Shown piece after piece: positions 60,138-63,835 of a DNA stretch of 64,000 nt (position 1 is its first letter; each line of letters starts with the position of its first letter). The notes below the pieces were generated by a model. It saw only the letters and a program-made list of their open reading frames with translations, had not been told where the DNA came from and did not search any database. Source of the DNA: a virus (lineage: Duplodnaviria; Caudoviricetes); IMG/VR virus record IMGVR_UViG_3300021431_004509, positions 1 to 64,000 of that record. One strand, 5' to 3'. The translations under genes and the position numbers were made by a program.

Positions 60138-60345
60138 CCTGACGGCCTGACGGCCTGACGAAAGAAAATTTTCGTCAAGTGTCCCCAAAGGTCAAACGGC
60201 GTTACAGTCTAAGTGTAAGCGGTCAGCGCTTGCAGAAAACGCCTGACGGCCTGACGGCCTGACGAAAGAAAATTTTCGTCAAGTGTCCCCAAAGGTCAAA
60301 CGGCGTTACAGTCTAAGTGTAAGCGGTCAGCGCTTGCAGAAAACG
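60138..60345 (+). repeat. Perfect 104-bp tandem duplication carrying CCTGACGG 8-mers, the palindrome TGACGAAA-N6-TTTCGTCA and the 31-bp motif
   Basis: Units start at 60138 and 60242; motif copies at 60180-60210 and 60284-60314. Confidence 0.9.
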
Positions 60346-60757
60346 CACCACCGAGCGCAAGTCGGTGTGAGATCATGCAGCTAACTGCATGTAACCTTGT
60401 GCATAATCAAGGCGTCGCCAGTGGATGGGAGTAGGCCCATTGTTCGGATAGTGAAAGCCGCTGTGAGTGCTGAGTATCGGCAGCCGGCCGTGTATAGCTT
60501 CGGCCGTGACAATGTGATACCGTCACATTCGACACGCTGTCGCGCTGCGCCCTACCGCGTCAAAATTGGGGCGATATATCCAAATGATTTCAGCCTTGCG
60601 CCGTGGTGCGTGTACACGTTTCCGACGTGTACGTTTATCCGGCATATCTCCGATGTGACGGATCGCATGTAATCGGCGCTTGGCTGATTGAAATTGATAT
60701 ATTTTACACACGAAAGCGTGTGGTAGAGCGCCCGCCTGATTACTCCGGCGGGCGTTG
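60318..60757 (+). ncRNA. Candidate large structured ncRNA or 5' leader
   Basis: More than 10 consecutive hairpins and a multibranch domain (60588-60693); no credible ORF. Confidence 0.55.
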
Positions 60758-61625: not shown

Positions 61626-61703
61626 GACGATCGGCAACGTCTGCCCATTCGGTTGGGTTTTTGCCGACGGTTTAGGGCTGCTGTCCGATAACAAGCCATT
61701 TAT

Positions 61704-61779: not shown

Positions 61780-61938
61780 ATGTCCTACAAGATTCGTATC
61801 GAACGGATTTCCGACGGCGAATCGTTCGGGGAATCTGACCTTATCCCGGTCGCAGATATCGGCGAGTATCTCAAGGTCTTATCTAAGCCGAGTATGTTCG
61901 GCGGCGGGGATTTTCGTTTCGTACTCATCCCGGCATAA
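61780..61938 (+). CDS. Small early protein (MSYKIRIER...)
   Basis: 52 aa, GGGGG SD-like run, just 3' of ribozyme 1. Confidence 0.55.
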   Translation: MSYKIRIERISDGESFGESDLIPVADIGEYLKVLSKPSMFGGGDFRFVLIPA

Positions 61939-61978
61939 AATCGCGGGTTTCTAAAACGTATCGAAAGTGAGGGTTTTT

Positions 61979-62173
61979 ATGTCCTATGAACTGTTTTGCT
62001 CCAAAGTGCGGGGTATTTGTTCTCGCGCTGGGTTATCCGCGGTTTTCTCCCATGAGGACGGGAAACATGTGGCGAGGGTTTCCGATGGTTGCATCATTAT
62101 CGGGAATTCTGTCGCACCGTCTGTCGTGATTCGTGATCCACTGCGGAATCATTGCTTCAGAACTGCAATTTGA
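61979..62173 (+). CDS. Small early protein (MSYELFCSK...), paralog of 62301..62492
   Basis: GAGGG SD; shared 'MSYELF...FS...G...A....G..I.GNS..PSV.I'. Confidence 0.7.
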   Translation: MSYELFCSKVRGICSRAGLSAVFSHEDGKHVARVSDGCIIIGNSVAPSVVIRDPLRNHCFRTAI

Positions 62174-62220
62174 TTTCTTCACCATTCCTCCTTTGTTTTG
62201 GCGGGGCTTATGCCACGCCA

Positions 62221-62270
62221 CCTTAATGCAGCCGATGCCGGTCACAAGCCCGGATAAATGCAGAGTGGGG
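62221..62270 (+). ncRNA. Twister (type P1) self-cleaving ribozyme
   Basis: CCT-TAA-TGCA-GC-CGAT-GCCGG-TCAC-AA-GC-CCGG-ATAAA-TGCA-GA-GTG-GGG follows the twister layout: UAA cleavage loop, P2 TGCA/TGCA, P4 CCGG/CCGG, pseudoknot CAC/GTG. Confidence 0.85.
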
Positions 62271-62300
62271 AATTTTATAATTGAATATCGGGGTGATCCC

Positions 62301-62492
62301 ATGTCTTACGAACTATTTAAGGACCGCTGTATTCTTATCGCGCATAGACATGGCGTGGAAACAGATATCGAATTCAGTGACGAGGGTGGGTATTACACAG
62401 CAACATTCCAGAACGGGGATGTCATCGTCGGGAATTCGATATGCCCGTCTGTGCGGATTTTCCATAAGAACGGAAGAATGGAGCGCGTATAA
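62301..62492 (+). CDS. Small early protein (MSYELFKDR...)
   Basis: GGGGTGA SD; paralog of 61979..62173. Confidence 0.7.
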   Translation: MSYELFKDRCILIAHRHGVETDIEFSDEGGYYTATFQNGDVIVGNSICPSVRIFHKNGRMERV

Positions 62493-62550
62493 AATAGAAA
62501 AACTGTGGATTTTTGTGCGGTTACATGTTAAACTGCACAAGGGTGATTGA

Positions 62551-63267
62551 ATGAAGTATCAGGAAATACGTGAGGCATTTCCGGAGTGTGGGGTTACTGT
62601 TTCTCCGCAGGGAATATCGCTGGTTTTTCCGTATTATATTCCAGACCGCTGGGTTAGTGCGCCTGTAAATGAGGATCAATTCCATAATATGCAGGTTTTT
62701 CAAGAACTCCTGTCATGTGATTCCATTGAGATTGCTTTATCCCCCGGGAAATACGCTAAAATGCTTTTTAATATGCAAATCGCTATAGGGAATTCGCTGA
62801 TGTTTCCACCATTAAACAAACCGCAATCAGGTGATGAAATTATAGCGGAGGCTTCGGAGGGCTTTTTAGCTGACGAGGAATTTGTTGATATATTTAAGGA
62901 TATTGATCCTGGAAATATTGAGGAAATCCTCAACGGTTTTCAGGAATTGAATGAGCGTAAAAAGGGGATCATTGCGAAGACTCCGATGACACTAAGTGGT
63001 GTCCAGCGTTGGAAAATTTTACGCGAGGAATCAGAGGAATTTCTTAAAAGGAATTTGCCGTGGGAAAGATCGATTGAACCTCCAACGAAAGGAATCGACT
63101 TCGGCACGATCGAATTTTACATAGAAGCTAGTCAACTGCTGGTTTTTAAGATATGTCAAACCGATATGCCGGCATTTCGTAAAATGTGTTTCGCGGCTGC
63201 TAGTTTTGATATCTCAAGCCATATCGAAAATGATTTTGCGAACATGGTTTTTGATGTTTTTTCATAA
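62551..63267 (+). CDS. Hypothetical protein
   Basis: 238-aa ORF with SD, visibly more AT-rich than its neighbours. Confidence 0.65.
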   Translation: MKYQEIREAFPECGVTVSPQGISLVFPYYIPDRWVSAPVNEDQFHNMQVFQELLSCDSIEIALSPGKYAKMLFNMQIAIGNSLMFPPLNKPQSGDEIIAEASEGFLADEEFVDIFKDIDPGNIEEILNGFQELNERKKGIIAKTPMTLSGVQRWKILREESEEFLKRNLPWERSIEPPTKGIDFGTIEFYIEASQLLVFKICQTDMPAFRKMCFAAASFDISSHIENDFANMVFDVFS

Positions 63268-63291
63268 TAGGTAATTCAATAATTATCATGT

Positions 63292-63318
63292 ACACCACCG
63301 AAACTCGGTGGTGTTTTT
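63292..63318 (+). terminator. Rho-independent terminator
   Basis: ACACCACCGA-AAC-TCGGTGGTGT-TTTT. Confidence 0.75.
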
Positions 63319-63387
63319 AATTGCTATCATTCTTTTTCCATACCTCCTTTCTTTCTCATCGGGGCGGGTTTTCCATCCGCCCCACAT

Positions 63388-63441
63388 GGCACCATGTACA
63401 AGCCTCCACGCGGCGGTGCTGGATAATCAACCGATTGTACA
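63388..63441 (+). ncRNA. Minimal HDV-like self-cleaving ribozyme 2
   Basis: P1 GGCACC/GGTGCT, P2 TGTACAA/TTGTACA, P3 GCC/GGC, L3 TCCACGC, P1.1 CC/GG, J4/2 CCGA; covaries with ribozyme 1. Confidence 0.8.
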
Positions 63442-63535
63442 ATAGGATGACGCCCGGCCAGGCTCCGTATGGACATGGGCAATAGCCGCCATGGCCGGGG
63501 CATCCGACAAAAAAAGGGGTTATGCGTGGAACGAT

Positions 63536-63835
63536 ATGTCGTACATGGTATCAAAGAATACCGTAGTTTTCGGCGGACATGAAACGTGGTTAAAGGCCAT
63601 AAGGCTGGAATTGTCCGGGAAAATAAGGTATGTGGGACGCGAGGAATCGTTTAACACTCTGATTATCAGGAACGCAGAGGTTATCTGGATTCAGCCGAAT
63701 GCCATCGCTCACAAGCAGTATTACAAAATAATAAACGTATCCAGAAGATACGGGAAACCTGTGCGGTATTTCAAAAATGCAAGTGCTTCTATCTGTATCA
63801 AACAGATAAAGGAAGCAGACGGCGGAAACGCATAA
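63536..63835 (+). CDS. Small alpha/beta protein (DUF2325-like)
   Basis: 'VVFGGH..W', 'A.VIW.Q.NAI.H..YY', 'PV.YF'. Confidence 0.6.
   Translation: MSYMVSKNTVVFGGHETWLKAIRLELSGKIRYVGREESFNTLIIRNAEVIWIQPNAIAHKQYYKIINVSRRYGKPVRYFKNASASICIKQIKEADGGNA

Follow-up and report, generated by a model that had tools for sequence, protein, structure and literature searches.

The stretch analyzed here (the window, 64,000 nucleotides [nt] of virus IMGVR_UViG_3300021431_004509, Caudoviricetes) corresponds to the initial 64 kb of a provirus record that spans 117,148 bp and has a completeness rating of 99%. Its genes run on the minus strand up to ~57.7 kb and on the plus strand from ~59 kb on, and three self-cleaving ribozymes lie within the plus-strand region from 61.7 to 63.6 kb, among small genes whose products begin with MSY. 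[quoted passage not shown] A previous reading of the window (the sequence-only reading), made without database searches, had proposed that self-cleavage severs this tract from the ribosome-binding site (RBS) of the next gene and acts as a timer of its expression. We examined the module, its recurrence in related phages, and its possible partners.

The module and its ribozymes

Table 1. Features of the ribozyme region, in window coordinates
Feature	Position	Strand	Basis or remark
HDV-like ribozyme 1 (HDV-1), minimal, no P4	61704..61755	+	Member of a covarying alignment; predicted cut 5' of G61704
s64, small gene, 64 amino acids (aa), MSYELF...	61979..62173	+	Open reading frame (ORF); cistron upstream of the twister module
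G-poor pyrimidine tract with motif CCATTCCTCCTTT (62182-62194)	62170..62199	+	Begins at the s64 stop codon
G+C hairpin GGCGGGGC / TTAT / GCCACGCC	62200..62219	+	Hairpin scan; adjoins twister P1
Type-P1 twister without P3	62220..62271	+	Rfam RF03160, 56.7 bits, E 2.4e-11
GGGGAAT, partner of ATTCCTC	62267..62273	+	Overlaps the 3' strand of twister P1; not the s63 RBS
s63, small gene, 63 aa, MSYELF...	62301..62492	+	ORF; downstream of the twister
Intrinsic terminator	63292..63320	+	Follows the 238-aa gene (62551-63267) and precedes the second module
Pyrimidine tract with motif CCATACCTCCTTT (63338-63350)	63325..63360	+	Sequence
G+C hairpin GGGGCGGGT / TTTCC / ATCCGCCCC	63361..63383	+	Hairpin scan; stops 4 nt before the predicted cut
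HDV-like ribozyme 2 (HDV-2), minimal, no P4	63388..63441	+	Covariation; predicted cut 5' of G63388
Element X, 61-nt conserved structured RNA, nested stems	63445..63505	+	Fold; separates HDV-2 from the next RBS region
A-rich run, G-run, and ATG 63522	63507..63524	+	Includes the partner proposed by the sequence-only reading (63513-63524)
14-codon ORF from ATG 63522	63522..63566	+	Sequence and ORF table; frame differs from that of the next gene
Next gene, 99 aa, MSYMVSK...	63536..63835	+	Start backed by the L058 homologue

The motif CCAT(T/A)CCTCCTTT occurs exactly twice in the window, both times on the plus strand and just where the sequence-only reading had placed it, and the likeness of the two tract copies, read directly from the sequence, reaches ~24 of 27 nt. 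When up to two mismatches are allowed, 8 matches are found against 2.7 expected, a number attained in none of 100 shuffles. In the whole 117-kb genome, the octamer CCTCCTTT is present on the sense strand at these two sites only, both of them no more than 45 nt from a ribozyme cut, and anti-SD-like words in general are depleted 2- to 5-fold on the sense strand relative to the antisense strand. The core CCUCCUUU(CU), which in the first copy is located 13 nt past the s64 stop codon, equals the 3' tail of the Firmicute 16S rRNA.

Each tract is followed by the G+C hairpin that the sequence-only reading had described, with a stem of 8 bp including one G/A mismatch before the twister and of 9 bp including one G.U pair before HDV-2, and both hairpins end 4 to 5 nt ahead of the predicted cut. 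This placement is common to many of the ribozymes that we collected: a hairpin of at least 6 bp ending 0 to 6 nt before the cut is present in 26 of 42 HDV-like ribozymes, compared to 12% of control positions. Since the stems of these cut-proximal hairpins contain five G.U pairs and no A.C pairs, the hairpin is a structure of the plus-strand RNA. A hairpin adjoining P1 is also near-universal, as judged by eye, among 142 distinct phage twister contexts. In almost all of those contexts (viral contigs L005 to L034 and L185 to L296), the G+C hairpin ends 3 to 5 nt before the UAA cleavage loop and often stands directly after a stop codon. A terminator reading of the two window hairpins was ruled out, given that no U-run follows either of them.

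The twister and HDV-2, on which the sequence-only reading was premised, proved to be sound assignments, by Rfam alignment in the first case and by covariation among 23 relatives in the second. The twister match, whose E value refers to the full length of the model, stays under the RF03160 gathering score of 67.2 bits because the optional P3 is absent; at gathering thresholds Rfam returned no match in the window, and the twister surfaced only in a permissive search. Its conserved core is present in the consensus order (UAA cleavage loop, P2, P4 loop GGUCNCAAGCCC, AUAAA, and GAG), with the cut predicted between U62224 and A62225, and the same core is found in the 142 phage contexts mentioned above.

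As for the HDV-like ribozymes, HDV-1 gives only a weak match to CPEB3 (18.8 bits), HDV-2 has no Rfam match at E values up to 10, and their relatives reach 37 to 39 bits with RF02682, whose threshold is 44. We gathered these relatives by a DNA pattern of the P3/L3 core and aligned 23 members without P4. In this alignment, the nested double pseudoknot P1/P1.1/P2/P3 is paired in 97.3% of the cells, against 34 to 48% in slid controls; seven pairs show compensatory changes on both sides, and none of 500 shuffles is as good. In HDV-2, the stems are P1 GGCACC/GGUGCU, P2 UGUACAA/UUGUACA, P3 GCC/GGC, and P1.1 CC/GG. A G.U wobble at the base of P1 is conserved in 22 of the 23 sequences, both window copies included, and cleavage is expected 5' of G1. 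No tRNA stands beside the ribozymes in the window, and the tRNA genes of the genome are at least 4 kb away, so that the cuts do not fall within ~5 nt of a tRNA 3' end, as those of theta ribozymes do. The genome carries 12 tRNA genes, all outside the window, and a drum RNA (Rfam RF02958, 57.3 bits, above threshold) is found inside a tRNA cluster at genome positions 77970 to 78080 (L002:14070-14179).

Recurrence in related phages and exchange of the ribozyme

The relatives of the locus were found through DNA patterns of the ribozyme cores; locus searches seeded with the 238-aa and 257-aa proteins retrieved no relatives, and no similar DNA was present in the phage collection searched. At least 10 related contigs of gut and rumen phages have the tract-plus-hairpin module in front of an HDV-like or twister ribozyme; their kinship is apparent from the synteny of s64, MSY-family, 238-aa-like, and 257-aa-like genes. 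One relative (L184/L039) is a prophage of Flavonifractor sp. An82 (Oscillospiraceae). In particular, the module is located 5' of HDV-like ribozymes in L058/L098/L102/L152, L085, L106, L108, L114, L134, L143, and L150 and 5' of a twister in L135. Among these relatives the core CCUCCUUU(CU) is retained, while the hairpin sequences diverge.

Within 12 to 65 nt upstream, CCTCCTT is present in 7 of 38 unique HDV-like ribozymes, compared to a background of 0.5% (P about 1e-9, a value to be read with the shared ancestry of the loci in mind), and GGAGG is present in none of the 38. The CU tract occurs in only ~5 of the 142 phage twister contexts, which rules out a general association between tract and twister. 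The tract is a genuine, conserved, sense-strand anti-SD-like element, and it is lineage specific. Spacers rich in A+T or in pyrimidines often contain short CU-rich words, and a chance resemblance devoid of function might be considered on these grounds; however, two exact 13-mers where far fewer than one is expected, the confinement of the sense-strand octamer to the vicinity of two ribozyme cuts, and the recurrence in relatives make such an explanation hardly conceivable.

The comparison of the loci allowed us to recognize that the ribozyme classes are interchangeable cassettes at equivalent junctions. The same 56-aa gene stands upstream in L143 and L135, and these two share the tract and the stem of the hairpin as well, but the ribozyme that follows is HDV-like in L143 and a twister in L135, and the downstream genes differ. 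Likewise, the window and L108 share the s64 orthologue, which is followed by a twister in the former and by an HDV-like ribozyme in the latter (L108:250-360). In L153 and L157, the tract is followed by a hairpin with a U-run, terminator-like in appearance, and there is no ribozyme. In L114, two HDV-like ribozymes flank the module, and the interval between them contains no ORF (L114:1640-1780, plus orientation); the two predicted cuts would free a 131-nt RNA that carries an HDV fold besides the CU tract and the hairpin and whose tract is, by prediction, 80% unpaired. From these sequence comparisons, the factor common to the loci appears to be a 3' end made of tract plus hairpin rather than a particular downstream gene. 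The tie between the tract and the next gene that the sequence-only reading had drawn is not supported by these loci: where ribozyme and downstream gene have been swapped, the tract remains with the gene upstream, and it is also present before terminator-like hairpins and between two ribozymes with no ORF.

Other conserved elements accompany the ribozymes. Before HDV-1, where the CU tract is not present, a conserved box of ~30 nt, GGTTTAGGGCTGCTGTCCGATAACAAGCCATTT, was identified (window ~61672 to 61703). The same box takes the place of the G+C hairpin before a subset of HDV-like ribozymes (L074, L078, L157, L114, L134, and L150); in L150, what directly follows a copy of the box is the CU module and not a ribozyme. 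Homologues of element X, for which Rfam gave no match, occur in L108, L106, and L074; compensatory changes are seen in their outer stem, and L157 has an X-like copy. Element X could represent a novel structured RNA and perhaps act as a ribozyme, a protein site, or a switch. At L058:10290-10360 and L078:3150-3220, an HDV-like ribozyme with P4 is separated from the following start codon by a second conserved element, AGAGGTGAG ... CTGATCAG ... TGATCCA. Furthermore, RAGATH-16 (69.6 bits, above threshold) and RAGATH-4-like RNAs (57 to 67 bits, below threshold) were detected in L114 (152-225 and 421-544) and L150 (1576-1700, minus strand); they lie upstream of the 257-aa-like gene, in the slot that in the window is occupied by a structured noncoding stretch of ~440 nt (60318 to 60757).

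The small genes of the region 61780 to 62492 are three paralogues of 52 to 64 aa that begin with MSY and share a GNS..PSV motif; among them, s64 is a paralogue of s63. This family is found in all the relatives, and in the window each member follows a ribozyme or a sibling gene. No Pfam or PHROGs match was obtained for the small genes. The 99-aa gene downstream of element X weakly matches DUF2325 and phrog_11092.

Predicted pairing of the tract

According to the sequence-only reading, the RBS of the next gene is hidden by the tract as long as the RNA is uncut, and self-cleavage switches on, or times, downstream translation. Part of this proposal stands: the tract is conserved, and the coordinates place it and the downstream SD on opposite sides of the cut, so that cleavage separates the tract from the downstream cistron. 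The complementarities also exist as claimed, CATACCTCCTTT pairing with 63513 to 63524 at 11 of 12 positions and ATTCCTC pairing with GGGGAAT at 7 of 7, including one G.U pair. A partner matching at 11 or more of 12 positions is rare, occurring in 1.4% of 200-nt sequence windows and 3.3% of local shuffles and at four sites in 59 kb, and the variable base of the motif (T or A) is matched by the partner in each copy. In the minimum-free-energy fold of 63325 to 63545 (all our folds are thermodynamic predictions that ignore pseudoknots), a long imperfect helix joins 63325 to 63357 with 63507 to 63538 and encloses the hairpin, HDV-2, and element X. In L085, L108, and L150, the cognate duplexes are the best in their class and include the downstream SD. 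Moreover, an engineered twister in Escherichia coli gave 5-fold (SD/anti-SD in P1) to ~100-fold (P3) more expression in its active than in its dead form (PMC5052635).

What is not supported, however, is the specificity of the partner. At HDV-2, the region taken as the likely RBS of the next gene holds an ATG (63522) that opens a 14-codon out-of-frame ORF; the CAT:ATG part of the pairing thus uses an ATG that is not a gene start, and the real start, as indicated by the L058 homologue, is ATG 63536, 16 nt from the G-run. In L106, which has no CU tract upstream, element X is likewise followed by the same A-rich and SD (G-run) region. At the twister, the partner is the 3' strand of the ribozyme itself, 28 nt before the ATG of s63, whose SD lies at ~62290 to 62296. 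When 3937 windows from the plus strand of the phage itself were ranked by duplex energy, the cognate partner came 248th (HDV-2) and 127th (twister). In a comparison of 13 modules, cognate downstream regions did not differ significantly from noncognate ones (mean rank 4.9 of 12), with the cognate ranked best in three modules against one expected by chance, and the covariation of anti-SD and SD that the sequence-only reading had suggested testing across related phages was not found. The best partner of the tract also varies by locus: roughly half of the loci offer an SD, L058 offers a post-ribozyme element, and others offer coding sequence. Finally, the imperfect helix that closes HDV-2, of up to 24 bp, should by its stability survive a cut of the backbone.

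Because the energy ranks are ordinary, cognate partners are not better than others, and the partner changes from locus to locus, we consider the complementarity genuine but generic, of the sort to be expected whenever an anti-SD meets an SD. Together with the behavior of the tract in L143, L135, L153, L157, and L114, this leaves a cleavage-timed switch on the next gene without specific support, and we regard it as quite unlikely. A specific target in trans within the phage was also sought and rejected, only generic SD regions sharing 12-mers with the complement of the tract, and no sense-strand RBS was complementary to the whole tract above background.

The 14-codon ORF overlaps the start of the 99-aa gene, which lacks a good SD at the usual distance; translation of this gene may thus begin in an unusual way, by coupling or through a structure that draws the G-run nearer.

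A role without SD pairing could be imagined for the tract as a G-poor spacer, as a Rho-utilization (rut)-like or protein-binding site, or as the arm of an attenuator that slows cleavage. The tracts are 30 to 45 nt long and almost free of G, and HDV ribozymes can be misfolded by upstream sequences. In the uncut twister RNA, the tract is predicted to pair with AGAGUGGGGAAU in the 3' strand of the ribozyme (probability, ~0.84), overlapping P1 and the adjoining loop. Nevertheless, composition alone does not explain why CCUCCUUU is so strictly retained, the fold of the 141-nt twister region is no better than that of its shuffles (z = -0.05), and no equivalent complementarity to the 3' strand of the HDV-like ribozymes was seen. 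The repression by anti-SD-like words known from Bacillus subtilis is, in addition, Rho independent (PMC12697547). Altogether, we hold a function of this kind to be improbable.

A proposed role and its relation to known systems

It is possible to hypothesize, as the account that we tentatively prefer, that the sense-strand anti-RBS tract and its protective hairpin form the 3' end of the upstream cleavage product and that the cut sets the reach of the tract. In this gut and rumen phage lineage, the module sits immediately 5' of a self-cleaving ribozyme in what would be early operons, and cleavage would turn it into the 3' end of the upstream RNA, a task that a terminator-like hairpin appears to perform in two relatives. 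The hairpin would cap that end and keep the flank from mispairing with the ribozyme, and the single-stranded tract could mask purine-rich RBSs on any RNA to which it is attached. Before the cut, it could mask nearby purine-rich sequence, which at the twister would be the 3' strand of the ribozyme. After the cut, it would remain, capped by the hairpin, on the upstream fragment, where the fold prediction leaves it mostly free, with the SD of s52 as its best predicted partner. The cut would therefore decide which cistrons the tract can reach, the upstream ones staying attached to it and the downstream one being detached. In at least one relative (L114), the tract would end on a small RNA excised by two ribozymes.

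Several observations weigh against this account. The module loci all come from one phage lineage, and their counts are not independent events. All pairing of the tract is predicted, hundreds of windows of the phage pair with it better than the local RBS regions do, and cognate upstream regions pair no better than noncognate ones, with no covariation with any partner. The second copy of the tract lies beyond an intrinsic terminator and would be joined to the upstream mRNA only on read-through. Lastly, the geometry of the opposite strand is not explained: in 7 to 8 of 12 relatives, the exact complement of the tract reads AGAAAGGAGG, a spacer of 5 to 8 nt, ATG or GTG, and A-rich codons, that is, a complete canonical RBS, whereas a mere anti-SD needs no complement of a full RBS, and no sense-strand RBS in the loci matches the whole.

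This geometry might be taken to mean that the tract is an RBS of the opposite strand, either in use, as the start of short antisense ORFs or decoys, or left as an inverted copy or relic that travels with the hairpin-ribozyme cassette. L034 indeed has the motif as the SD of a real divergent gene, located beside a gene for an XRE-type repressor, and in the L048 group an XRE-like gene begins 20 nt from an HDV-like ribozyme. On the other hand, the sequence-only reading had dismissed a minus-strand start on the ground that AGGAGG lies 1 nt from the ATG, and this is true of both window copies, which retain the core despite such a dead spacing; the relatives, with their canonical spacing, depart from it. 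Their spacers are unrelated in sequence, and the ORFs, from 4 to ~200 codons, are unconserved and antisense to real family genes, as illustrated by the near-identical L058, L102, and L152, which yield 42, 15, and 113 codons, respectively. L114 and L009 have no start codon, no promoter-like minus-strand site is found near either module, and the G.U pairs of the hairpins exist only in plus-strand RNA. A useless relic should, moreover, decay, since anti-SD-like words are selected against on sense strands (PMC12697547). We consider an opposite-strand function or relic rather unlikely. A real minus-strand gene was ruled out for the window and its syntenic relatives, where the ORFs are unconserved and overlap real genes, and was accepted for L034 only; given the situation in L034, the tract may have originated as an inverted or borrowed RBS. 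A promoter formed by the tract and a TATA-like linker was likewise rejected for either strand, the partial matches seen by eye being inconsistent and no sigma-70-like site being present at the modules.

Returning to a tract whose reach is set by the cut, a more elaborate form of the idea is that the phage ribozymes release or delimit a mimic of the 16S tail, an RNA 3' end consisting of an accessible anti-RBS seed plus a protective hairpin, which would mask RBSs in cis until cleavage or in trans afterwards and which in L114 would become a free RNA of ~130 nt. We deem this extension unlikely.

In the preferred account, the module resembles the long-range anti-SD repressors of bacterial mRNAs. 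A screen of 8-mers in B. subtilis revealed that anti-SD-like words of 8 to 12 nt located anywhere in an mRNA, the 3' untranslated region (UTR) included, pair with the RBS, reduce mRNA level and translation in a Rho-independent way, and are underrepresented in genes (PMC12697547). In the same manner, icaR is controlled by an anti-SD in its 3' UTR through pairing of the 5' and 3' UTRs (PMC3868564), and hbs offers a further case of long-range repression within an mRNA (PMC5737220). The phage shares with these cases a sense-strand anti-SD-like word of at least 8 nt, located downstream of a cistron and on the same RNA as an RBS, together with strong SDs of the Firmicute type and the depletion of such words from the sense strand. 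It differs in that the 3' end is set by a self-cleaving ribozyme instead of a terminator and in that the word is a 10- to 13-nt copy of the 16S tail beside a hairpin, which may end on an excised small RNA.

A second likeness is with the engineered SD-masking twister (PMC5052635, and the hammerhead designs cited there), in which an anti-SD lies 5' of the ribozyme and a purine-rich strand 3' of it, and the cut separates the two. In those designed switches, the SD is inside a ribozyme stem, whereas in the phage a hairpin stands between tract and ribozyme, the twister partner is not an RBS, and the HDV-2 pairing is generic. A natural switch based on a ribozyme and anti-SD masking is not documented in the literature, and none is demonstrated here.

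With the theta ribozymes, the phage HDV-like ribozymes share the minimal HDV-like fold, the occurrence in gut Caudoviricetes, and a cut just 3' of a helix; different from them, they have no adjacent tRNA, the upstream helix is a plain G+C hairpin after an anti-SD tract, and they are placed between protein genes. The function of theta ribozymes not associated with tRNAs is described as unknown in the paper that reports them (PMC10879173). The clustering of several ribozyme classes in one phage operon also recalls the intercistronic twister and hammerhead ribozymes of prophages and the RAGATH neighborhoods.

In the papers that we searched or read, a conserved anti-SD tract attached to a cut-proximal hairpin was not described. 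Stable hairpins near cuts are known as such, both as 3'-protective stem-loops at processed intercistronic ends and as P(-1) of the genomic HDV ribozyme. Like the hairpins reported here, they end a few nucleotides before the cut and would cap the 5' product and prevent mispairing of the flank; these precedents account for the hairpin but not for the conserved CCUCCUUU tract. If the tract were inert or acted in antisense, the finding would shrink to a grammar of protective hairpins.

The role of the intercistronic self-cleaving ribozymes of bacteria and phages is a long-standing open question. An anti-RBS tract joined to a cut-proximal hairpin, with ribozyme classes interchangeable behind it, leads to the specific hypothesis that the cut sets the reach of a repressor arm. 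If correct, the phage module would provide the first case in nature of a design that had been built by hand in synthetic biology, and it would extend the newly described long-range anti-SD repression to the architecture of phage operons; should the tract act as a mimic of the 16S tail, intercistronic ribozymes would acquire a concrete job, as the natural counterpart of the engineered switches.

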